DNA of 46,647 bases. Origin: a virus. The stretch spans positions 1 to 46,647 of the IMG/VR virus record IMGVR_UViG_3300045988_053844. One strand, given 5' to 3'. The first letter of the stretch is position 1. Each line of letters begins with the position of its first letter. Below the pieces are notes generated by a model, which ran no database searches, was not told where the DNA came from, and saw nothing but the letters and a program-made list of their open reading frames with translations. Position numbers and translations under genes: made by a program. Shown one piece after another: positions 13,931-30,811 of this stretch.

Positions 13931-16900
13931 ATGGCTAATGAACCTTTAGACGAATTCGACCGCAGATTAAAGGCAAAAAAGGAATATGCTAATTATGGCT
14001 TTATTGCTGATATTGACAGCGGCTTGTCACCTGCTGAAACTCTAGGCTTTTATGACCTGCAAAAAATGAGTGACGATGAATACAACAAGTTTTCGCAGGC
14101 AGTAAAAAGCAATAGCTCACCGACGATTGATACTAGCAGTATTATCAACGACGATAAGCCGGGCATAGGCACTGCCGTAATGAACGGCCTTAAAGGTTCG
14201 GTGCGTGGCTTATTCGGTGCGGCTAAAGCGGCCGTTGACGCTAATATTGAAGCTCATAAGGGTGACAAGAATGTTGTTAAAGAGTATGACCAATCAGAGA
14301 ACATCAGCAAGGCTTTAGGCTATGTCACCGATGAGATTTTGAAGCGCGAAGAAGTTAAGGCTGATACGGCGGCTGGGCAACTTGGTTATGATTTGGCCGA
14401 AAATGGTATTCAGCTTTTAGTACAGCTTGCACTGACTAAAGGCGCAGGCGCTGCCGGTGCAGGAATGAAAACTGTACACGCTATCAGTATGCTTTACAAT
14501 GGTGCAAACATCAGCGGTGAACAATATCTGCGACTGCGCAAAGAAGGCGTAAACGCAAGCAGAGCGGCAGAAGCAGGCTTGATGAACGCTGTGCCGCAGG
14601 CGGTATTGGAAGAACTGCCGCTTGGCAGACTGCTAAAGAAGATGCCAGCCGGTAGCGGTCTGAAAGCTAAGATTTGGGAAGTCACTAAACGCGGCCTTGA
14701 AGAAGGCGTTACCGAAGCATTGCAGGAATTCCCGGAACAGGCGACGGACTTATGGGCAAAGAACCCAGGTGCAAGTACTGCAAAACTTGCGGAAATGTGG
14801 GGTGAGAACTGGCAGCAGAATTTGAAGGAAGCAGGCTATAGCGGCCTTATCGGCGGTATCCTTGGCGGTACAGTCAGTGGCGTAAGCGTTGCCGTTGACA
14901 GTGCCGTTGAGCACGTAGCCTTGAAAGCGAACGAAGAACGCAAGGCAAAGTTAGTAGCAGACGCTGAACGAATCAAAGAAACAGGCATTAACCCCGAATA
15001 CGCAGGAGCAAGCATTGACGCTATTAATGCTAACGTAGAGGATAATACTGTTACTGTATCAGCGCAGGATTTAGAAGGCTACAAGCAGACTAGCAACAAT
15101 AATAAACTTTTTGAGGAATTGGGAATTACCGAAGAAGAAGTTGCAATGGCTGCGGAGCTGGGGCAGGATATAGATATTAGCCGTGGCAAGTTTACGGCGG
15201 CTATGGCTAAGGACAATGCACTGTTTGAGGCTACAAAAGACAATATGTATTTTGACAGCAACGGCGAATTGTCGGACGGCGGCGCAAAGACACGTAAGGA
15301 ATTGCGAGAAGGCTATAACTTAACCAGGCAAGCAAGTACGGAGCTTGACGCAGAACTTGACGCTATTGTTGACAGCGCTACTAAAGCCGGTATGAATAAA
15401 TCTCATGCTGGCAATTTGCGCTTAGTGCTGGAGAGCCGCGCACTTATTGCAGACCCCGAAAATCCTGCTGCATGGCTGCAAAAGAATAAGCTGCGCTTTG
15501 AAGATGGCGGCAAAGCTAAACAAAAGAATGGCTGGTTTAGCAAGGGAGGAGTGCTTAAAAAAGAGCAATTCTATACTACTAATATTACCGGAAATGAGAT
15601 GGGACACTATTCAGATTTGAAGAGCTTGCAGAAAAAGGCTTTTGCATGGTATAGGGACAACTTGCAAGGCACGAGCGTTCATAATAGTGTATTGGGTGAT
15701 ATTAGAATAGATAAAGGGTATCAAGAAAATAATATTAAATTTGGCACAAGTGGCAGAAAGAAAATGGAACACACTTCCGCTAAAAAAGAAAAACTTTTTG
15801 CATTGCGCTATTTACGTGAAATTATGGAGAATGGTAATTTCGTTACAGAATCTGCGCCGCAAAAAGAAAAACATTCAGACGAGAATTTTTATTATATTCA
15901 TTCTGCACTGAATGTTAATGGTGAAAAACGTTATGTAGTTGTTACAGTAAGAGAACATAATGATAAATCATTATCATATTATAATCATAATGTTTTTAAC
16001 GAAAGTGAGTATAAAAAAATAGAGGACGCGTTCAAGCCCTCGGGTTCCGAGCAATTCAAGGCTCAGCCCAGTATCTCAAACAAAACGTCCTCTTTTGCTG
16101 ATAGTGTATCACAAAAAGCAGATAATTACAAGCAACAAAAAATTGTCAATGGTACACTGAAAGATAAAGGCATGATTTCCCCAATGGATGATGGTACTTA
16201 TGTTATCACGCTTTTTAAGGGCGCAGATGCAAGTACAGTTATCCACGAAACAGGACACTACTTTGTGGAAACCATGATTAACGAAGCATTGGCAGACCCC
16301 AGCAACACAAGACTAAACGCTGATGCGAAAAAGCTCATGGAGTATGCAGGCATTGACGCTGACACATGGGCAAGCGGTGACGTTGAAGCAAAGAGAGCCG
16401 GGCATGAAAAACTGGCAGAAGCATTTGAAACCTACATCATGGAAGGCAAAGCGCCTAGTGTTGGCTTGCGCGGAGTGTTCCAGAGATTCGCTAATTGGTT
16501 ATCAGCTATTTATAGTAAGATAGCAAGAAGTGAAAATGCGGCAGAATTAACGCCGGAAGTACGGCAGGTATTCGACAGAATGTTGGCGTGCCGTGAAGAA
16601 ATTGAAGTTATGGCGCGCATGGAGGGCATATTCGGCGGCTTGCCGGAGAATATAACATCCAAGTTATCAGACCAAAATAAAAAGACCTTGCAGGATAAAA
16701 TCTTGAAGGCTAAAGACAAGGCCGTGGATATTCTGACAAGGCGCGCAATGGCTGATTTCAGCGCAAAGCGCAGAGCTGAAAAGGCTGCTTTCATCGAAGA
16801 AATACGTCCGCAGATTGAGCAGGCAGTAGCGCAAGAACTTGTCAATCGTGCAAGAGTGCAAGTCGGGCAGGAATTTGGGCAAGAATCAAAACTTGCTAAT

Positions 16901-19900
16901 CCCGCAATTATTGCGAGAAAATACAGACACGTTTTAGGAAGCGTACTGCCAAACTATAATGATATGCTGAACGATACTAATGCCAGCATTGACGATATAC
17001 TTAATCCGATAGTTGAGTATCTTCAAGCAGAAGTCGACACATACGGCACACTTTCTAAAGAGCGTGTCGCAAACGCCAAAGATATGCTGGTTGCTATGTT
17101 CAGCAAGTCAAGACAGAAAACCGTTACGAATCCTACATTCGTTGTTGATGAGCACGGCATGGCTCATGCTAACTTTAGGCAGAAAATCAACGAATGGGAA
17201 ACAATCGAAGCTAATCCGCGTAGGCTTGCAAGAAAATACATTTATGGTAATGAGCGCATAAACTATAACGAACTGTTAAAAGATACAAACGGAGCTATTG
17301 ACGATATTTTGAATCCTATTGCTGACAGAATAGAAAGTGAGCTTGCGGAATACCAAGATACAGTCAAGAGTGAACGTGCGTTTTTTATCAATGGCAAGTG
17401 GGGCTACTTCGCCGCAACCAATAGAACAGAAGGCAAGTATGCAAACGATTTTGCAGGCATACCGGACCAGAGTGCAGTCTTGGTTGACTTCGGCGAGATA
17501 GGCAAAGACGGAAAACGTCATTGGACTAAGCGAGCTTTAGAGCAAGCGGATATTGAAGGCCTTGTATTCCATGAAGCAGGCGACAGTATTCGTAATGTCA
17601 ACTGGGTGTCAAGATACGTTCACGATTACGGCGGCAACATAAGCGACTTGACCAGCAAAAAAGGACGCAGGAAAATTGCCGAAAAGATTGCAAGAGGCGA
17701 AGACATAGCGGACTACTACGATTTGCGCAGCACCGGTTTAGATTATGGCGATGCCGAAATTAAGGCAGACTTTAAACATGTTGTCGATGAGCTGGACAGA
17801 CTGCAAGCGTTGAAGCATAGACTTGAAACAGACCCCGAAGGCGTCGACCTGGTAAAAGAAAGTAAGCGCAACCAATTATCGCAGGAGCAAAAAGAACTCT
17901 TTGACCAGATAGCAGAGGAAAACGGCTATGCCGGCGGCTATGAAATGGCAAGAGAGATTGTCGAAGGTTATACCGTCAATGAGAATGAGGGTAGCGACGT
18001 GCAGGATAACTGGGCGAGAAACTACATTCGCAACGGCGGTGACAAAGCAAAGCTCAAAAGCGAAGAAGGCTTGAAAGAGATTGCTGAAACTTTGGTAGAG
18101 GGTGAGCAGCTTACAGAGCTTAACGAGCTTAAAGCCTTGAAGCACGAGCTTGAAACTAATCCGGATAAAGTCGACCTTGTGGAGATGAGCAAAAAGCGTG
18201 CCTTGTCTAACGAGCAGAGAGAACTGTTTGACTGGGTGGCTGACAGTTTGGGCTATGACAGTGGCGATGCTATGGCGCAGGATATTTTGACTTCACCGAG
18301 CGAAAGAGCTATGGTACGTCAAGAGATTGACAAGGCTGTGAACCGCAGATTCCCCGACTTCATGCAGGAGCGTGAGCAGGCAAGAGAAGCGGCAAGGGAA
18401 GCACTCTATAATGACGAGAGCGGCGAAGTGGTGGCACTTGAACAACAGCTTATTGATGAGGCACTCAACGAAATAAGCAACAAGGATATTAAGCAAAAAG
18501 AGCGTGAGAATATTGCTAAAGTGCGGAAGCAGAACGCAGACAATTTTGCTAAACGCTATATTCAGACTTTGCCAGCAGGCGAAGTTATGAAGCCGAGAAG
18601 ATTTGCTATGGCAGAACGCAGAGCGGCGGCTAATGCAAACAAGGCTGCTAAAGCCGGACTTTTGGAAGAAGCGGCTATGTATAAGCAGCAGCAGATGATT
18701 AATCACGCTTTGTATCGTGAAGCAGTCAAGGCCAAACATCAGATTGAAAGCGCAAGAAAGTACGTCAAAAAGCAGATGCACAGCAAGAAAGAAGTGTGGG
18801 GAACAGAGCAGCACTTCTTCCAGATGTGCGCATTGCTGGAGCGTATGGGCTATCACCGCAAGGACTTTAACACCAACGGCAGAGAAGTGCAGCCGCTTAG
18901 CGATTACATTGCAGAGATGCAGGCAAAGTACGGTGACGAAATTATTTCTATGCCGGAGTTTGTTTTGAACCCGAATAATGATTTGACCAATGCACCGCAG
19001 CTTAGCCTTGCGAACTATATGGACGTTATCGACGCACTGAAAAACATTCGTGCTATTGCAAAGCAGGATACGCAGATGAACAAAATCGCCGCCGGTGAAG
19101 CCTTTGAACAGGTTAAGGCTGACACGATAGCGCACCTGCAAGAATTGCCGGTAGAGTATGAGGCGGAGATTGGCAGCGACAGCAAAAAGAGCCTGCGTAA
19201 GCGAATTGTCGAATGGCCTAAAAACTTCATGGCTACGCTGCGTAATGCTGATAACTTCTTCTTGATGATGGATAATTGGACAGAAGGTTATTTTACTAGG
19301 GAATTTTACAACAAAATCAACCATTGCGCAGATATGGAAAGCACGATGCTTGAAGGTTATCAGAAGGAGCTTACAGATGCTTTGCAGAAATGGGAGCCAG
19401 ACAAAGAAACCGGCATTGCGCACGATAAAAGAATTTACTACGAAGAACTTGGCGGCAGCGCAGATAAGCATGCTTTGATTGCTATGCTGTGCAACCTGGG
19501 CAGTGATAGTAATGCTGCAAGGCTGTGTTCGCAAAAACCGGTAGGCGTAAAGAATTCTGATATATGGGTGGAAGAATCGGAGCTTATAGGCAAAGAAGAA
19601 GCAATGCTGCAAACCAAACAAAACCTTATAGAGTTTTTGTGCAAGCATCTGACTAAAGCAGATATTGCCTATGCCCAGGCGCGTATCAATGCAGCAAGTA
19701 AATTCTGGCCTATGCTGGCAGAAGTCAACCGCAGAACAAAAGGCTTTGAGCCGCCTAAGATTGAAGCGTCGCCGCTGGTGATGAAGCTTGCAAGCGGTGA
19801 AAGCGTGGTATTTGAAGGTGGTTACTTCCCGTTGGAGCGTGATACACGTACCGGCAGTATGCCCGGTAAATTCGACAGAATCGACAGTACCGAAGAAGGC

Positions 19901-21286
19901 AGCAGACCGCCGCAGCGGACTTTGGCTACTAATACCGGTTCCAGCAAGGCGCGTACTGGCGGCAAGTATCCCGTCGACTTATCGCGCGGCAGTGAGGTTA
20001 CGGCGGTGAAAAGCACTATTCATGATATTTGTTATCGTGAAACAATGCTTGATTTCAGAAAGATACTGAACGATGAGGATATTTACCGCAACATGGTTGA
20101 GCGTTTAGGCGATACCAACGTAAGACTTTTGAGAGAGTTTTTGCAGGCTTGCGCTAATCCGTACGGCAATAAAACAGCATATATGGCAGAGAATCTGTTT
20201 ACGAAAGCCGCCAACGCTTTACGTAATATCGCAACAAATACGGCTATTATGCTTAACTTCAAAACGGCAATGCAGAACTTTTCTAACATCCTGCTATATG
20301 GTAATAGTGTAGAAGGCTTTACTCATGCCGACGCTTTCAGAGCCTTGTACCGTGGCTTTACAGGTGAAGGCAGGGCAGAAGTAGATGCGATTTGTGCAAA
20401 AAGCGTGTTTATGCGTGAACGCATGGAAGTACCAGACGTTACATTGAGAGATATTCAGAATCGTTCCGACCTTAACTCAATTGAGAAAAAGACGCTGAAA
20501 TATGGTGCAATGCTGTTAGGCTACACTGATATGATGACTGCAAAGCCGGTATTTGCAGAAGCATACATGAAGAAAATCAACGAAGGCAAGACGGAAGAGG
20601 AAGCACTAGACTTTGCGAACGCTGTTATTCGGCGCACGTTAGGCAGCAGCCGAATTCATGATGTATCAAGTCTGCAACGTGGCAGCGGCTTATTCAGACT
20701 GTTTACGATGTTCCAGGGATTTTTCAACACACAGTTTAACCAATGGGACAGAGAAGCACATATCGCCAAAAGGTTATGGAATAGCGGCGAGAAAAAAGAA
20801 ATGGCTGAACGGCTGATTGCTTTCGTTACCGCTAAATGGTTAGGCGTATGCTTGCTGAACGTAGCTATTGCAGAGCTTTCTTTGACCGCGCCTTTTGAGA
20901 AAGACAAAAAAGACGATTGGAATAATCTTGCAAAAGAGCTTATCAACTACCCGTTGTCTATGGGCGGTCCCGTCGGGCAAGCGGCGAACGTTGGTGTACA
21001 GAACTTGCTAGGTATGAGGAACTACGGCTACAGACTGACTGCGGCGCAAGGCTTGATTGACAGAGGCTTTACTGTTGCAAGACGCTTGAACGACGTTGCG
21101 GAAGGCAAGAAAGAACCCGGCGAGTTAATAGAACAAGCAGCATATGTCGCCGGCGCATATCTTGGTATTCCCAGTGGTATCTTTAATATCATATTCAACG
21201 GCATAGATATTGCTGCTGATGATATGGACTTTGAGCTGCAAGACATTTACAAACGCAGGCCAAAAAGCGAACGCAAAAAAGATTGA
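13931..21286 (+). CDS. Giant polyvalent internal virion protein with a zincin HExxH metallopeptidase module, 2451 aa
   Basis: Uninterrupted 7.36-kb ORF in the T7 gp16 position. HETGH at nt 16244-16258. Gly/Ala-rich hydrophobic N-terminal segments. Two internally duplicated modules of about 55-60 aa. Confidence 0.8.
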   Translation: MANEPLDEFDRRLKAKKEYANYGFIADIDSGLSPAETLGFYDLQKMSDDEYNKFSQAVKSNSSPTIDTSSIINDDKPGIGTAVMNGLKGSVRGLFGAAKAAVDANIEAHKGDKNVVKEYDQSENISKALGYVTDEILKREEVKADTAAGQLGYDLAENGIQLLVQLALTKGAGAAGAGMKTVHAISMLYNGANISGEQYLRLRKEGVNASRAAEAGLMNAVPQAVLEELPLGRLLKKMPAGSGLKAKIWEVTKRGLEEGVTEALQEFPEQATDLWAKNPGASTAKLAEMWGENWQQNLKEAGYSGLIGGILGGTVSGVSVAVDSAVEHVALKANEERKAKLVADAERIKETGINPEYAGASIDAINANVEDNTVTVSAQDLEGYKQTSNNNKLFEELGITEEEVAMAAELGQDIDISRGKFTAAMAKDNALFEATKDNMYFDSNGELSDGGAKTRKELREGYNLTRQASTELDAELDAIVDSATKAGMNKSHAGNLRLVLESRALIADPENPAAWLQKNKLRFEDGGKAKQKNGWFSKGGVLKKEQFYTTNITGNEMGHYSDLKSLQKKAFAWYRDNLQGTSVHNSVLGDIRIDKGYQENNIKFGTSGRKKMEHTSAKKEKLFALRYLREIMENGNFVTESAPQKEKHSDENFYYIHSALNVNGEKRYVVVTVREHNDKSLSYYNHNVFNESEYKKIEDAFKPSGSEQFKAQPSISNKTSSFADSVSQKADNYKQQKIVNGTLKDKGMISPMDDGTYVITLFKGADASTVIHETGHYFVETMINEALADPSNTRLNADAKKLMEYAGIDADTWASGDVEAKRAGHEKLAEAFETYIMEGKAPSVGLRGVFQRFANWLSAIYSKIARSENAAELTPEVRQVFDRMLACREEIEVMARMEGIFGGLPENITSKLSDQNKKTLQDKILKAKDKAVDILTRRAMADFSAKRRAEKAAFIEEIRPQIEQAVAQELVNRARVQVGQEFGQESKLANPAIIARKYRHVLGSVLPNYNDMLNDTNASIDDILNPIVEYLQAEVDTYGTLSKERVANAKDMLVAMFSKSRQKTVTNPTFVVDEHGMAHANFRQKINEWETIEANPRRLARKYIYGNERINYNELLKDTNGAIDDILNPIADRIESELAEYQDTVKSERAFFINGKWGYFAATNRTEGKYANDFAGIPDQSAVLVDFGEIGKDGKRHWTKRALEQADIEGLVFHEAGDSIRNVNWVSRYVHDYGGNISDLTSKKGRRKIAEKIARGEDIADYYDLRSTGLDYGDAEIKADFKHVVDELDRLQALKHRLETDPEGVDLVKESKRNQLSQEQKELFDQIAEENGYAGGYEMAREIVEGYTVNENEGSDVQDNWARNYIRNGGDKAKLKSEEGLKEIAETLVEGEQLTELNELKALKHELETNPDKVDLVEMSKKRALSNEQRELFDWVADSLGYDSGDAMAQDILTSPSERAMVRQEIDKAVNRRFPDFMQEREQAREAAREALYNDESGEVVALEQQLIDEALNEISNKDIKQKERENIAKVRKQNADNFAKRYIQTLPAGEVMKPRRFAMAERRAAANANKAAKAGLLEEAAMYKQQQMINHALYREAVKAKHQIESARKYVKKQMHSKKEVWGTEQHFFQMCALLERMGYHRKDFNTNGREVQPLSDYIAEMQAKYGDEIISMPEFVLNPNNDLTNAPQLSLANYMDVIDALKNIRAIAKQDTQMNKIAAGEAFEQVKADTIAHLQELPVEYEAEIGSDSKKSLRKRIVEWPKNFMATLRNADNFFLMMDNWTEGYFTREFYNKINHCADMESTMLEGYQKELTDALQKWEPDKETGIAHDKRIYYEELGGSADKHALIAMLCNLGSDSNAARLCSQKPVGVKNSDIWVEESELIGKEEAMLQTKQNLIEFLCKHLTKADIAYAQARINAASKFWPMLAEVNRRTKGFEPPKIEASPLVMKLASGESVVFEGGYFPLERDTRTGSMPGKFDRIDSTEEGSRPPQRTLATNTGSSKARTGGKYPVDLSRGSEVTAVKSTIHDICYRETMLDFRKILNDEDIYRNMVERLGDTNVRLLREFLQACANPYGNKTAYMAENLFTKAANALRNIATNTAIMLNFKTAMQNFSNILLYGNSVEGFTHADAFRALYRGFTGEGRAEVDAICAKSVFMRERMEVPDVTLRDIQNRSDLNSIEKKTLKYGAMLLGYTDMMTAKPVFAEAYMKKINEGKTEEEALDFANAVIRRTLGSSRIHDVSSLQRGSGLFRLFTMFQGFFNTQFNQWDREAHIAKRLWNSGEKKEMAERLIAFVTAKWLGVCLLNVAIAELSLTAPFEKDKKDDWNNLAKELINYPLSMGGPVGQAANVGVQNLLGMRNYGYRLTAAQGLIDRGFTVARRLNDVAEGKKEPGELIEQAAYVAGAYLGIPSGIFNIIFNGIDIAADDMDFELQDIYKRRPKSERKKD

Positions 21287-24543: not shown

Positions 24544-24900
24544 ATGATAGAACAGTCTTTAGATGCGGCATTGAACTCTATTATTAACGTCATATCTGGT
24601 TGCGTAATAACGTTGCTTATTACTATGTACCGGCAAAAGAAGAAACAAAATGATGCGTTGAAAGTGGGACTGCAAGCGTTGCTGCGTGACAGAATTATCC
24701 AGGCTTATAATCACTATGTCCAGGATAGAGGATGGATACCTATCTATGCCAAAGAGAGTATCGACGCCTGCTATCGGAGTTACGAGGCGCTAGGTGACAA
24801 TGGCGTGATTGACAGTCTGATGGAGCAGTTAAATGAACTGCCTAACTATGATTTAAAAGAACATGATGAAAAATGTAAGGAGTGTAAGTGTCATGCGTAA
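24544..24900 (+). CDS. N-terminally membrane-anchored protein, 118 aa (lysis-cassette position)
   Basis: One predicted TM (IINVISGCVITLLITMY) followed by a KKKQ stop-transfer and a soluble domain. Confidence 0.5.
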   Translation: MIEQSLDAALNSIINVISGCVITLLITMYRQKKKQNDALKVGLQALLRDRIIQAYNHYVQDRGWIPIYAKESIDACYRSYEALGDNGVIDSLMEQLNELPNYDLKEHDEKCKECKCHA

Positions 24901-25147
24901 AATAATTAATATGTTAAAGAAGAACGACAACGCTTACAGCGTAGGCAGAATCTGCGCTGTGATTGGCTTTGTTGTTTGGGTATTGGTTACACTATGGCTT
25001 GCTTTTTTTGCCAAGACCTGGAGCGGCTACGAGAGTTGTACGCTTGGTATGGTTACACTGCTGCTTGTACAGTTAGGCAATAAGGCTATTGAAACAAGAA
25101 TGTTTAAGGTGAAAAGTGAGGAGCGGAACGATGAGCGATTGGAATAA
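24893..25147 (+). CDS. Putative holin (two TM segments), 84 aa
   Basis: AAGGAG RBS. TM1 ICAVIGFVVWVLVTLWLAFF and TM2 LGMVTLLLVQLG, with a charged C-terminus. Immediately upstream of the lysin candidate and overlapping it. Confidence 0.5.
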   Translation: MRKIINMLKKNDNAYSVGRICAVIGFVVWVLVTLWLAFFAKTWSGYESCTLGMVTLLLVQLGNKAIETRMFKVKSEERNDERLE

Positions 25148-25751
25148 AGCATTAGCGACAGAGATTGCAAAAGGATTGATTAATACAGGAATTGAAGGTG
25201 GCTATGACAGCGTGGCGAAGTCTACGGCTTATGCTTATCCGTCAATCGGCGTGTCACAATGGGAAGGGAATAGAGCAAATGAGCTGCTGAGAGCTATCCC
25301 CGGCGGCGCAGAGTATGCAGACCGCACTTACATTGATATTAAGGCAAGCGGCGAACTGCCGATGCTGAAAGAGTTGTTAAGAAGCGACGCAGGACAACAG
25401 GCACAATTAGAACAGTTGTCACGTGACTGCCTGCAATATGTCGAAGTGCTTCAGCAGGTGCCGACGTTGGACGATACACGTTGCATTATCTATGCCGGAA
25501 TGTGGTGCCCTACATCTACTTGGGTAGTTAAGCGCTTTTTGGCTAACAGATATATGCACGTTGACCTGCGCAGTCTGGAAGCACTCTATAAACTGTTTAA
25601 AAACTACTACTGGGTTGCCGCCGATGTTGGCGAGATGTATAGAGCAGGTTACGCCAATAGAGCGGAAGCTACGTATCAGTACGTCGCTGGCATTGACTTA
25701 ACAACACCATACGGCGTGCCTGCTTATGGGTATGCTGGCAACGGAAGATGA
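25131..25751 (+). CDS. Putative endolysin (lysozyme-like), 206 aa, no obvious cell-wall-binding domain
   Basis: Position after the holin. SIGVSQWEGNRANELL resembles the G-x-x-Q-W-x-G-x-R motif of the lysozyme-like phage family as I recall it. Confidence 0.45.
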   Translation: MSDWNKALATEIAKGLINTGIEGGYDSVAKSTAYAYPSIGVSQWEGNRANELLRAIPGGAEYADRTYIDIKASGELPMLKELLRSDAGQQAQLEQLSRDCLQYVEVLQQVPTLDDTRCIIYAGMWCPTSTWVVKRFLANRYMHVDLRSLEALYKLFKNYYWVAADVGEMYRAGYANRAEATYQYVAGIDLTTPYGVPAYGYAGNGR

Positions 25752-25984: not shown

Positions 25985-26180
25985 CAAACTACCAGGCACA
26001 TAATAATAATCTTCTACAAAAGGCGTAAATTCGCACAAAAATACTTCGCCTATGAGCGTTTTAAATTTAGTGCCGCTTATGATTTATCCTGCGGCGAGCT
26101 AAAGCCGCTTGTAGGCGAAGTTTGTGCTTCTGACGCGATTTATTATATTTTGCAAATATAGATATTTATATGAGGTAATA

Positions 26181-26591
26181 ATGAAAGATGAAACAAAACG
26201 CAAGATTGATAAAGCTGTTAAGATTGGTCTTATTGTTGCTGGTCTTTTCCTTATCTGCAATGACATTTACTGGCGGTGGCACAGCAGAAGCGGCGCCCCA
26301 GCGGATAACGCTGTCAATCGAACAGTGGAATCAATTCAAAAATCAAACGAATCTGCTGGAAGCGAAGTTGAATCTGGCAGACGAGAAATTGAAGCAGCAG
26401 AAGAACACGTCGACAGAACTGTTGACGCAGTTGAACGAAGCGAAGAAACAGCTCAATCTAACGCAAGAAGCGCTGATGAACTCCAAACACTCATTAGCGA
26501 GTGCCGAGGAATCATTGAATCACAGCGAAGCATTATACAAGAAGTTGACAGAGCAAATGGAATTAGAACGTCGGGAAGCAAAGAGAATTAA
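26181..26591 (+). CDS. Frame-A protein: N-terminal TM plus acidic helical domain (i-spanin-like architecture), 136 aa
   Basis: GAGGT 4 nt before the ATG. TM KIGLIVAGLFLIC, then an E/R/S-rich helical region. Fully overlapped by the frame-B ORF. Confidence 0.4.
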   Translation: MKDETKRKIDKAVKIGLIVAGLFLICNDIYWRWHSRSGAPADNAVNRTVESIQKSNESAGSEVESGRREIEAAEEHVDRTVDAVERSEETAQSNARSADELQTLISECRGIIESQRSIIQEVDRANGIRTSGSKEN

Positions 26592-26655
26592 ATGCCAACG
26601 GAATATTTATGCAAGCAGTGCATTATTATTCTTGCTTTGTGCAGCTGCAAAATAA
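26188..26655 (+). CDS. Frame-B protein: signal-like N-terminus, Leu-heptad coiled coil, C-terminal hydrophobic anchor, 155 aa
   Basis: Its ATG lies 7 nt downstream of the frame-A ATG, in the +1 frame. LLRLVLLLLVFSLSAMTF, then LEAKLNLADEKLKQQ...LYKKLTEQMELERREAK, then IYASSALLFLLCAAA. Confidence 0.4.
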   Translation: MKQNARLIKLLRLVLLLLVFSLSAMTFTGGGTAEAAPQRITLSIEQWNQFKNQTNLLEAKLNLADEKLKQQKNTSTELLTQLNEAKKQLNLTQEALMNSKHSLASAEESLNHSEALYKKLTEQMELERREAKRIKCQRNIYASSALLFLLCAAAK

Positions 26656-26819
26656 AATTATTGGATGGTGTTACGATGGATGAAAAGGAACAAATACCGG
26701 CAGGCATTATTACAATGTTATTAAAAGGTTATGTAGAAACTATTGCTTTTCAAAGGAAACTCATCTGTGCCGCTTTGATTGGTTGGGTGGCAACAGCTAT
26801 TGCTTTTATTTGTATGTAG
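26592..26819 (+). CDS. Small membrane protein, 75 aa (alternative start ATG 26676, 47 aa)
   Basis: ATG directly follows the frame-A TAA in the same frame. IIILALCSC is lipobox-like. C-terminal TM LICAALIGWVATAIAFICM. Confidence 0.35.
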   Translation: MPTEYLCKQCIIILALCSCKIKLLDGVTMDEKEQIPAGIITMLLKGYVETIAFQRKLICAALIGWVATAIAFICM

Positions 26820-26834
26820 GTAGGTGACAACAAA

Positions 26835-27074
26835 ATGGACACACTGCTGAAGAACACGCGGGATTGGTTGCAAACTTCAACGCGGCGTTCATTCAGCGCG
26901 GTATTGGTGGAGGCAAAGATAACACCACGACAGGTAGAAATTTGCGAACTGAAATTTGTGAAAGGCTTGACCAATTATCAGATAGCAGCGGAGCTGAATG
27001 TATCTGTTAAAACGGTAGACAAGGAACTTAATACTGCGTATAAACGAATAACAAATGTATTATCATTCCTTTAA
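26835..27074 (+). CDS. LuxR / sigma-70 region-4 type HTH transcriptional regulator, 79 aa
   Basis: ITPRQVEICELKFVKGLTNYQIAAELNVSVKTVDKELNTAYKRI is a canonical region-4/LuxR-type HTH. Confidence 0.65.
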   Translation: MDTLLKNTRDWLQTSTRRSFSAVLVEAKITPRQVEICELKFVKGLTNYQIAAELNVSVKTVDKELNTAYKRITNVLSFL

Positions 27075-27081
27075 ATGCGGG

Positions 27082-27112
27082 GAGCCGTCCTTTTTAGGGC
27101 GGTTCTTTTTTT
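27082..27112 (+). terminator. Rho-independent terminator
   Basis: GAGCCGTCCT / AGGGCGGTTC forms a stem with two G-U pairs and a tttt loop, followed by ttttttt. Confidence 0.6.
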
Positions 27113-27174
27113 ATGGGGAATATATAGGGATTGTTTTGCTAAAAATCAGTTACACTATAAGTGAGGTGATAAGT

Positions 27175-27597
27175 ATGTACGGACAATATAACCCTTATAT
27201 GGGAGCAACACCGCAGATGCAGCAACGGCTGAATTATTTGCAGCAACAGCAACAGCAGATGTATCAACCAACTATGCAGCAGCCTATGCCTATGACATTG
27301 AAAGGCAGAATTGTTACCGGCATGGATGAAGCAAAGGCAGCTCAAATTGACCTGGACGGAACGAGCACTTTCTTTCCATGCCCTGCCGAAGGAAAGATTT
27401 ACGAAAAACTTATAGGCTTAGACGGCCTGCCGATTTTCAGAGTATATCAAATTAACAATTCGCAGAAGCAGCCTGCATATGCTGAACAAAACATTGTAGA
27501 TAGATTAGTAGAACGTGTGGACAGATTGGAAAAGCAGATTGGAGGGATGAACCATGAACCCGATGCAGATAATGGCAATGTTACAGAACAGCGGTAA
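27175..27597 (+). CDS. Cargo protein 1: Q/M/P-rich N-terminus plus globular domain, 140 aa
   Basis: GTGAGGTG RBS. Begins MYGQYNPYMGATPQMQQRLNYLQQQQQQMYQPTMQQPMPM, then LKGRIVTGMDEAKAAQIDLDG.... Confidence 0.6.
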   Translation: MYGQYNPYMGATPQMQQRLNYLQQQQQQMYQPTMQQPMPMTLKGRIVTGMDEAKAAQIDLDGTSTFFPCPAEGKIYEKLIGLDGLPIFRVYQINNSQKQPAYAEQNIVDRLVERVDRLEKQIGGMNHEPDADNGNVTEQR

Positions 27598-29791: not shown

Positions 29792-30811
29792 CTATATTAA
29801 ATTTATAGCCTCTAATAGCTGTTCCAACGTCTTATGAGTGTAAACCCTTTCCGTTACATCGGAGCTGGCGTGCCCCAAAATTAATTTCTTGATTTTTACG
29901 TTTACGTCTTTATCATCAAGCAGGCTTGCACAGGTGTGACGTCCGTCGCCGGGCAAGTGGTCCATCTTAAACATATTCATTACCGGTTCCCAGTATCTGC
30001 TGCGGTACGTGTCATAGGATATATTCTTTCCCCGCTCATCAGAGAAGATGCATTTGCCGGTGCTGCGTTCGTAGGCAGCCTTGAAGAAGTCGAAGATTTT
30101 ATCAGCAATCGGGATTCTTCTGCCGCGGCCTGCCGCAGTTTTCATGCCGCCAACGAAGAATTTATTTTCAAAGTCAACGTCTGCTTTCTCAACTTTCACT
30201 AGCTCGGTGGGGCGCATACCGGTATAACAGAGGATAAGCACAGCTTGCACTTTTATATCCTGGCTGTTCTCCCATAATATAGCAAGCTCCTTTTTGGTCA
30301 GCGGATTGTGTATCCTGCTCTCAACCTGCGGCGGCAGGCTGGTAAGCTCAACATAATTCTTTACTATAATGTCATTGGCAAGTGCGTACTTGGCCATCAG
30401 ATTACACACGATTCGGATTGCCTTCTTGGTGGCGTAGCCTTTGTCGCAGTCATTAATAATCTGTTGGAATTGCGCTGTCTTAATATCTTTGAACGGTATA
30501 TCCCATAGAGGCGCGCAGCGTTTGTATGCCGCTTTGTATTGGTTGGATTCTTCCTTGCCGTCAACATAGGTTGCGGCTTCCCATCTCTCGTGTACCTGGG
30601 CGAACGTCAAGCCTACGCTTTCTATGTCATAGGGTGATTGATTGTATTCAGCCAGGGCGTTAAGTGCTTCCGTGCGCTTTGCATAGTAGCCTAGTATTTT
30701 CATAAGCTGACGGCCGTCATTGGTAAAGCCCGTTGTAATGCGGACTATATACGGCCGCCGCCGATTCCCGGTTAGTTTTGTAACAGAACCATAGCCGTTA
30801 GGTAATTTCAT
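29792..30811 (-). CDS. int: Tyrosine recombinase / phage integrase, 339 aa
   Basis: N-terminal arm-binding-like MKLPNGYGSVTKLTGNRRRPY. Catalytic-domain motifs TGMRPTEL, HxxR-like (GRHTCASLL) and LGHAS...VYTH. Confidence 0.9.
   Translation of the reverse strand: MKLPNGYGSVTKLTGNRRRPYIVRITTGFTNDGRQLMKILGYYAKRTEALNALAEYNQSPYDIESVGLTFAQVHERWEAATYVDGKEESNQYKAAYKRCAPLWDIPFKDIKTAQFQQIINDCDKGYATKKAIRIVCNLMAKYALANDIIVKNYVELTSLPPQVESRIHNPLTKKELAILWENSQDIKVQAVLILCYTGMRPTELVKVEKADVDFENKFFVGGMKTAAGRGRRIPIADKIFDFFKAAYERSTGKCIFSDERGKNISYDTYRSRYWEPVMNMFKMDHLPGDGRHTCASLLDDKDVNVKIKKLILGHASSDVTERVYTHKTLEQLLEAINLI

Follow-up and report, generated by a model that had tools for sequence, protein, structure and literature searches.

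Two overlapping reading frames, here named A and B, lie at the end of the late region of a phage whose DNA is held as IMG/VR virus record IMGVR_UViG_3300045988_053844. The whole stretch of 46,647 nucleotides (nt) is referred to as the window and positions count from its first letter. We consider that the locus probably carries a dual-coding lysis pair that works in the manner of a spanin and has no lipoprotein component. The parts of this statement differ in strength. Both frames are very likely to be real genes; that the two proteins together perform the spanin step of lysis is somewhat favoured.

Frame A runs from ATG 26181 to TAA 26589-26591 on the plus strand (+) and encodes 136 residues with an N-terminal anchor and a long acidic helix; it belongs to the phrog_18860 family and is a candidate i-spanin-like subunit. 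Frame B, the +1 frame of A, starts 7 nt downstream and extends from ATG 26188 to TAA 26653-26655 (+). Its 155 residues comprise a signal peptide, a coiled coil and a C-terminal hydrophobic tail. The dual-coding overlap at 26188..26591 (+) is 404 nt long and takes up about 98% of A and 87% of B, which continues beyond the stop of A. A Shine-Dalgarno sequence (SD), GAGG(T) at 26172..26176 (+), is common to both frames and, read directly, stands 5 nt before the ATG of A and 12 nt before that of B. An earlier sequence-only reading of this stretch had given the same coordinates, start spacing and common GAGGT, all of which are correct on re-reading of the sequence. The architectures it described are also real, namely hydrophobic residues 12-26 followed by an acidic helical domain in A, and a signal-like N-terminus, leucine at every seventh residue and a C-terminal hydrophobic tail in B.

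Frame A is formally open upstream as far as GTG 26124. Homologues carry stops between that codon and ATG 26181, so the latter is the conserved start. Two designs of the start region occur. In the first, one SD precedes both starts, which are separated by 4 or 7 nt (the window, L092, L093, L099, L100, L102, L126 and L133); in the second, B has its own internal GAGGAGG within the coding sequence of A, as in Megasphaera-type loci. Judged from the letters, these arrangements are compatible with translation of both proteins.

The DNA of homologous loci came from three sources, IMG/VR, GTDB genomes and metagenome contigs. Of about 103 distinct homologues, 102 have A and B both open, and this holds to a protein identity of about 20-30%. 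The sequence-only reading had named in advance, as the result that would count against it, homologues that keep one frame only; the opposite is seen. In a first set, 85 of 86 distinct sequences are open in both frames over at least 370 common nt, the single exception (L127) having a frame-switching deletion, and in every case B extends 55-91 nt past the stop of A. Further distinct sequences are dual in nine cases out of nine, and so are eight out of eight of the most distant A-family representatives, in which the +1 frame is open throughout and encodes the B architecture. The third frame is closed in every homologue of this census. One very broad A alignment proved too divergent for a locus search and was replaced by smaller queries and direct contig look-ups. 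No A-family member without an open B frame was found in the further loci and distant-contig look-ups. The overlap is as old as the family.

The family is large. A frame-A profile compared with 1.84 billion representative proteins gives 77 clusters, nearly all of 120-145 residues and matched over near full length. Gene callers have reported frame A in at least 328 protein clusters and frame B in 54, with one frame per genome, so that one protein of the pair is missing from every annotation. In the window itself the call is frame B (P0121). DNA and protein searches of GenBank phages with A and B of the window and of the Megasphaera type gave no match, and no cultured phage reference exists.

Is either frame merely left open by the other? 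To calculate the stops expected by chance, synonymous codons were resampled with the window's own codon usage and the protein of one frame held fixed. With the B protein fixed, 11.4 stops are expected in frame A over the window overlap and none is observed. With the A protein fixed, 8.7 are expected in frame B inside the overlap, again with none observed. The third frame has 17 stops against 14-15 expected. In each of eight divergent homologues 7-12 stops are expected and there are none. The sequence-only reading had cautioned that a purine-rich coiled-coil gene can produce an open shadow frame; zero stops, against 11.4 and 8.7 expected, lead us to reject that caveat for the window sequence. 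A stricter null, deliberately over-strict, draws codons from the region's own usage, which already reflects stop avoidance. The probability of zero stops per sequence or lineage is then 0.01-0.03 for A and 0.05-0.13 for B in at least 12 deep lineages. These lineages have diverged so far that they no longer have synonymous sites in common, and chance therefore fails as an explanation for either frame.

Purifying selection and synonymous-site constraint were among the checks that the sequence-only reading had proposed, and they show each protein conserved beyond what the other frame imposes, with synonymous sites constrained in both. Across 43 unique 475-nt homologues amino acid identity drops in step in the two frames; sequences that are 70-75% identical in nucleotides have 57% identity in A and 61% in B. 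Substitutions counted along a minimum spanning tree, with expectations at kappa 2, give observed/expected ratios of 3.55 for changes synonymous in both frames (n=12), 1.72 for those nonsynonymous in A only, 1.10 for those nonsynonymous in B only and 0.72 for those nonsynonymous in both. The pattern is roughly the product of two constraints, omega being near 0.5 for A and near 0.3 for B.

Divergence at 4-fold sites, from genome pairs at 70-93% identity, is 0.083 for frame A in the overlap, 0.259 for frame B in the overlap and 0.315 for the non-overlapping tail of B. Four of five neighbour genes give 0.31-0.46; the fifth, the glutamine-rich p180 gene, gives 0.151 and aligns poorly. The tail of B shows the codon-position divergence of ordinary coding DNA, with p3 (0.449) above p1 (0.238) and p1 above p2 (0.161). 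At greater depth, A-A and B-B alignment scores were compared with null scores, for which the codons encoding the protein of the other frame were resampled. Observed scores exceed every null draw in 99 of 99 inter-lineage pairs for both frames (z 5.5-24), and under the strict null they exceed it in 30 of 30 pairs for A and 29 of 30 for B. A and B are each conserved in their own right, B being the more constrained and A more weakly, though clearly, so.

These results bear on two explanations in which only one frame is a gene. If B were the sole gene and A a shadow open reading frame (ORF) kept free of stops by purine-rich coiled-coil composition, then the stronger constraint on B, the choice of B by the gene caller in the window and the tendency of purine-rich DNA to favour open alternative frames would all fit. 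We judge this very improbable, as frame A has no stop where 8.5-12 are expected in more than 100 sequences from at least 12 deep lineages, is conserved beyond the imposition of B, keeps its own start, anchor, C-terminal motif and cysteine, constitutes the 77-cluster family that matches phrog_18860, and lies over 4-fold sites of B that are less diverged than those of the B tail. The reverse, with A the sole gene and B the shadow, would suit the preference of callers for A and the existence of a PHROG family for A, whereas B matches none clearly. It too is most unlikely. Frame B is free of the 7-9 stops expected, and the 4-fold sites of A, which are the second codon positions of B, have diverged far less than those of the neighbours. 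In addition, the 55-91 nt of B beyond the stop of A evolve as coding DNA and always encode a hydrophobic end, the heptad leucines, signal-peptide cleavage motif and QW motif of B persist to 20-30% identity, and in some lineages B has an internal SD of its own.

A few sequences join the frames. Among database proteins, P0173 reads A then B, P0174 reads B then A and P0153 is B running into the third frame; L127 (2468-2911) is A then B, with a switch accompanied by loss of sequence. These chimeras reflect either indels introduced in sequencing or assembly, or natural variants that are defective or fused. They might also be taken as products of programmed ribosomal frameshifting that joins A and B, in either order, into one fusion, and P0173, P0174 and L127 do provide examples. 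The switch points differ from case to case, however, and the loss of sequence in L127 is as expected for an indel or assembly error. Each frame has its own conserved start and N-terminal targeting segment, and both are open over their full length, which a frameshift product would not need. For these reasons frameshift fusion is rejected as the main explanation and we give it hardly any credence.

Protein A begins with a basic N-terminus followed by the hydrophobic segment AVKIGLIVAGLFLIC. The anchor is assigned to residues 15-26, IGLIVAGLFLIC (26223..26258, +), from hydropathy and a helix at residues 3-36 in an AlphaFold2 (AF2) model; the DNA of this anchor also encodes the h-region of the B signal peptide. 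A hydrophobic 15-residue segment scores 2.4-3.5 on hydropathy in all 38 family members. The ectodomain is acidic, with a net charge of -7 for the window protein and a mean of -7 over the same 38 proteins, and AF2 models it, with low confidence, as one helix of about 87 residues (46-132). Conserved elements are TVExI, NxSA and the C-terminal LxxLISECxxIxxxQxxIxxVDxAN, which the family alignment places at residues 101-127, LQTLISECRGIIESQRSIIQEVDRANG (26481..26561, +), and which holds the ectodomain cysteine. Of 74 distinct A sequences, 47 have one cysteine in the ectodomain; some distant members have two.

The window A matches phrog_18860, a family of unknown function, with E 3.9e-8, residues 9-129 aligning on profile positions 13-133 of 141. 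This profile is matched by 32 of the 38 A-family members (best 8.4e-12). Relatives of A match the Rz-like spanin PHROGs 312 (2.9e-7), 89, 214 and 739 colinearly from the N-terminal anchor, with E values from 3e-7 to 1e-3. The predicted layout of A, an N-terminal transmembrane segment and a helical periplasmic domain, is that of an Rz-type i-spanin.

Protein B begins with a putative Sec-type signal peptide at residues 1-35 (26188..26292, +), consisting of an n-region, a 13-residue h-region and A-E-A|A, where cleavage would occur. TAEAAP or equivalents (CxA|D/E) are conserved across the family. The predicted mature N-terminus carries the most conserved B motif, residues 40-51, ITLSIEQWNQFK (26305..26340, +), located by family alignment. 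The pattern (I/V)xMSxxQ(W/Y/F)NxLK, or ITMSxxQW in short, is present in all B lineages, Q46 being invariant and K51 nearly so; the invariant positions of the family alignment are Q46, S75, L78, L96, L120 and Q137. AF2 gives helices at residues 44-70 and 76-154, the second with the invariant heptad leucines, and between them a conserved break at residues 71-75 (QKNTS; 26398..26412, +) that includes S75. The middle domain is basic, with a mean net charge of +3. At the C-terminus a basic cluster, KRIKxQRN, precedes a hydrophobic tail of 12-20 residues ending in lysine or arginine. In the window the part encoded by B alone (26592..26655, +) holds a basic cluster and then the hydrophobic IYASSALLFLLCAAAK, as judged from hydropathy, and its divergence is of the coding type.

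PHROGs provide no clear family match for B. Searches of Pfam and NCBIfam with A and B returned sub-threshold coiled-coil matches only (tropomyosin, SMC, Rad50, EnvC), and the database names 'peptidoglycan endopeptidase', 'EnvC' and 'CwlO-like' that are attached to A and B proteins are judged to be coiled-coil artefacts.

The genes around the pair point to lysis. In homologous loci the gene directly upstream is a recognised endolysin from one of six families: GH25 (L104, L109, L122, L126, L156), Amidase_2 (L095, L100, L102, L128, L161), VgrG3-like lysozyme (L093, L101), Peptidase_M15 (L158), Amidase_3 (L160) and Glucosaminidase (L162). Before the endolysin are holin-like ORFs or Phage_holin_4_1, and the pair occupies the third position of the lysis cassette.

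In the window the order before the pair is a phrog_4105 protein, a small protein with two hydrophobic segments, a 206-residue protein and a 43-residue hydrophobic ORF. The phrog_4105 protein, of 118 residues (24544..24900, +; E 1e-23), opens the cassette, and homologues with LLRDRIIQ lie upstream in many loci. The small protein (24863..25147, +; probable start 24893) appears holin-like, and its homologues (MRKFLNMLKK...) precede the endolysin slot in L078, L086, L092, L093 and L099. The 206-residue protein (25131..25751, +) has an EGGY motif and is assigned to the endolysin slot by its position. It is well conserved: among 442 database hits, the best 120 are 85-95% identical. The same slot, between the same neighbour genes, is filled in L093 by a VgrG3-like lysozyme, and the 206-residue protein may represent an undescribed endolysin family.

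The named hosts are Phascolarctobacterium and Megasphaera, both of the class Negativicutes. Negativicutes are Firmicutes with an outer membrane, that is diderm. The window phage is temperate, with an integrase at 29792-30811, and has a T7-like virion module with portal PF12236, a GP7 capsid protein and a gp14-like internal protein. Internal virion proteins of the T7 gp14 type are known from phages that infect hosts with an outer membrane. Two of the loci are filed elsewhere, L099 (CAVCLW010000076.1) under an Escherichia coli bin and L097 (CAAGQJ010000059.1) under a 'Bacilli bacterium' metagenome-assembled genome; we think these are binning errors rather than true hosts.

From these features we infer the following sequence of events. 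Protein A would be anchored in the cytoplasmic membrane and extend its helix into the periplasm, as does an Rz-type i-spanin. Protein B would be exported by means of a cleavable signal peptide, exposing the conserved ITMSxxQW N-terminus, and would form a basic leucine-zipper rod with a hinge, anchored in a membrane by the basic cluster and the short hydrophobic tail. Once holin and endolysin have removed the wall, the acidic rod of A would pair with the basic rod of B. The opposite charges of the rods suggest such pairing, and the conserved free ends (the N-terminus of B and the C-terminus of A), together with the placing of the anchors at opposite ends, suggest a complex that bridges or zippers. 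Acting on both membranes of the diderm Firmicute host, inner and outer, this complex might then bridge them, fuse them or make them unstable, with no lipoprotein subunit.

Both frames may, on the other hand, be real genes that serve some purpose other than outer-membrane disruption. Holin/antiholin-like timing or regulation of lysis, release of the tether between outer membrane and wall, a block to superinfection or an envelope role in lysogeny come to mind. Two starts behind one SD recall the dual-start control of holin and antiholin, small membrane proteins flank the pair, and the cytoplasmic membrane may be the location of both A and B; the lack of a lipoprotein and of proven contact with the outer membrane also speaks for a different role. 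Set against this, the position after the endolysin, the usual site of spanin genes, is fixed over six endolysin families in very divergent phages, and separate holin-like ORFs are already present upstream of the endolysin. Rods of about 90 helical residues are not holin-like, relatives of A match Rz-like spanin families, and no other spanin candidate was seen in the cassette even though the host has an outer membrane. A role of this other kind is, in our estimation, rather unlikely, though it deserves serious consideration.

Assignment of the pair to spanin-like lysis has itself to be weighed against a number of observations. The most important concerns lipoproteins. A canonical lipobox is present in 0 of 80 B sequences; the window B has phenylalanine where some relatives have cysteine. 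The lipobox-like matches of A lie within its hydrophobic segment, with ITGC in L092 as the one exception. As to periplasmic cysteines available for intermolecular disulfides, B has none in 73 of the 80 sequences. Both A, with a cysteine ending the hydrophobic segment, and B, with a cysteine near the cleavage region, were entertained as lipoproteins and rejected as a general feature. With a conserved lipobox absent from both, the outer-membrane lipoprotein that defines both types of spanin is missing. The sequence-only reading had proposed an Rz/Rz1-like pair embedded over its full length. Dual coding, the lysis-cassette context and the diderm hosts bear this out; the Rz1-type lipoprotein does not appear.

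The topology of B is uncertain, since the basic cluster is on the presumed periplasmic side of the tail, contrary to the positive-inside rule. The AF2 models of A and B are of low confidence, with predicted local distance difference test (pLDDT) values of 62-65, and Foldseek searches of BFVD with them gave no significant match. The window's own A matches no spanin PHROG at E <= 0.1, and the matches of its relatives are modest, with the caveat that helical proteins attract spurious matches and coiled-coil bias is possible. Selection on A is weak at short range, omega being about 0.5-0.7 as opposed to 0.2-0.3 for B, and expression of both proteins is deduced from evolution. The 206-residue protein in the endolysin slot has no match in Pfam, PHROGs, NCBIfam or PDB sequences, or by hhalign to VgrG3-like lysozymes. 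Finally, the named hosts cover two branches of the family only.

A bolder proposal, which we advance tentatively, is that the pair represents an unrecognised class of outer-membrane disruption for phages of diderm Firmicutes, in which lipoprotein-free subunits from the same approximately 400 nt, anchored at opposite ends, zipper into a hetero-oligomeric coiled coil that would draw the two membranes together or fuse them. The overlap itself would then make the matched pair, as purine-rich DNA would specify the acidic helix of A when read in one frame and the basic leucine zipper of B when read in the +1 frame. Overlapping would in that case contribute to the mechanism and do more than compact the genome, and for a double-stranded DNA phage few known two-frame overlaps would be as long or conserved to such depth.

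Several features near the locus are recorded for completeness. The 196-nt spacer upstream of the pair (25985-26180) can form a long imperfect hairpin of -56.2 kcal/mol, against -41.1 +/- 4.2 for shuffled sequences (z -3.6). The spacer sequence recurs in L079 and L083 and is absent from L075, L082 and L094, where the small hydrophobic ORF ends just before the SD. Candidate explanations for the hairpin are a terminator or attenuator, a site of processing and a small inserted sequence. Directly downstream of the pair is a 47-residue protein with an acidic N-terminus and a C-terminal hydrophobic segment (26676..26819, +), kept in the Phascolarctobacterium-phage group only (L078, L086, L092, L099) and not in Megasphaera-type loci. 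After it come a 79-residue sigma-70 region 4 or Q-like helix-turn-helix protein (26835-27074) and, overlapping the end of that gene, a 180-residue protein (27055-27597; phrog_21718) with a long glutamine-rich low-complexity stretch, whose homologues align poorly and diverge about equally at all three codon positions. Further upstream, after the T7 gp14-like gene and a 706-residue gene, an ORF of 2451 residues (13931-21286) is suspected to encode a giant gp16-like internal virion protein. A 451-residue antisense ORF (18293-19648, minus strand) lies inside it.

The closest known system is the embedded Rz/Rz1 spanin pair of lambda. There too the second gene is in the +1 frame of the first, the endolysin gene immediately precedes the pair, and the host is diderm. 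The N-terminal anchor and helical, cysteine-containing periplasmic domain of A also correspond, and relatives of A match Rz-like PHROGs weakly. The differences are as marked. The A/B overlap is co-extensive over 404 nt whereas Rz1 is nested, a short gene within the distal half of Rz (PMC6139136). Protein B is a leucine-zipper protein of 155 residues with a Sec signal and hydrophobic tail, unlike the proline-rich lipoprotein Rz1, and the hosts are Firmicutes (Negativicutes) rather than Proteobacteria.

The unimolecular spanin gp11 of T1 offers a second comparison. Protein B alone has an N-terminal export signal and a C-terminal anchor, and one such chain could in principle reach both membranes. 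However, gp11 requires a lipoylation signal where B has an AxA-type site and no lipobox in 80 sequences. The periplasmic part of gp11 is mainly beta; that of B is a predicted helical coiled coil, and B is always paired with an overlapping partner. Since the lipoprotein common to both known types is lacking, we assign A and B to neither the two-component nor the unimolecular spanins and describe them as spanin-like in action. A full-text search of the literature gave no description of a spanin or other outer-membrane lysis factor for phages of Negativicutes, and a lipoprotein-free spanin design is raised as a possibility only, by Kongari et al. (PMC6139136). The pair is a concrete candidate for outer-membrane disruption, drawn from abundant human-gut phages, and would extend the spanin concept to a lipoprotein-free design.

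By analogy, and in layout only, the pair can be set beside class I viral fusion proteins and SNARE-like zippers. Protein B has a signal peptide, a partly hydrophobic N-terminal motif, heptads and a C-terminal anchor, and the acidic and basic helices could zipper, but there is no match in sequence or fold. Should the lipoprotein-free zipper mechanism hold, it could be categorically new.

As an example of overprinting the locus can be compared with phiX174 A/B and D/E, T7 18.5/18.7 and P2 lysB/lysC. All have two proteins encoded by one DNA stretch in different frames, reduced synonymous variation and fast evolution of both proteins. In those systems one gene is nested in, or partly overlaps, a longer one. 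Here, in contrast, A and B are of similar size, have nearly their whole length in common, carry targeting signals at matching positions and keep the arrangement in a family whose members are as little as 20-30% identical. Co-evolution to that depth of two structured proteins over about 135 codons provides a rare natural test of joint optimisation in two reading frames.

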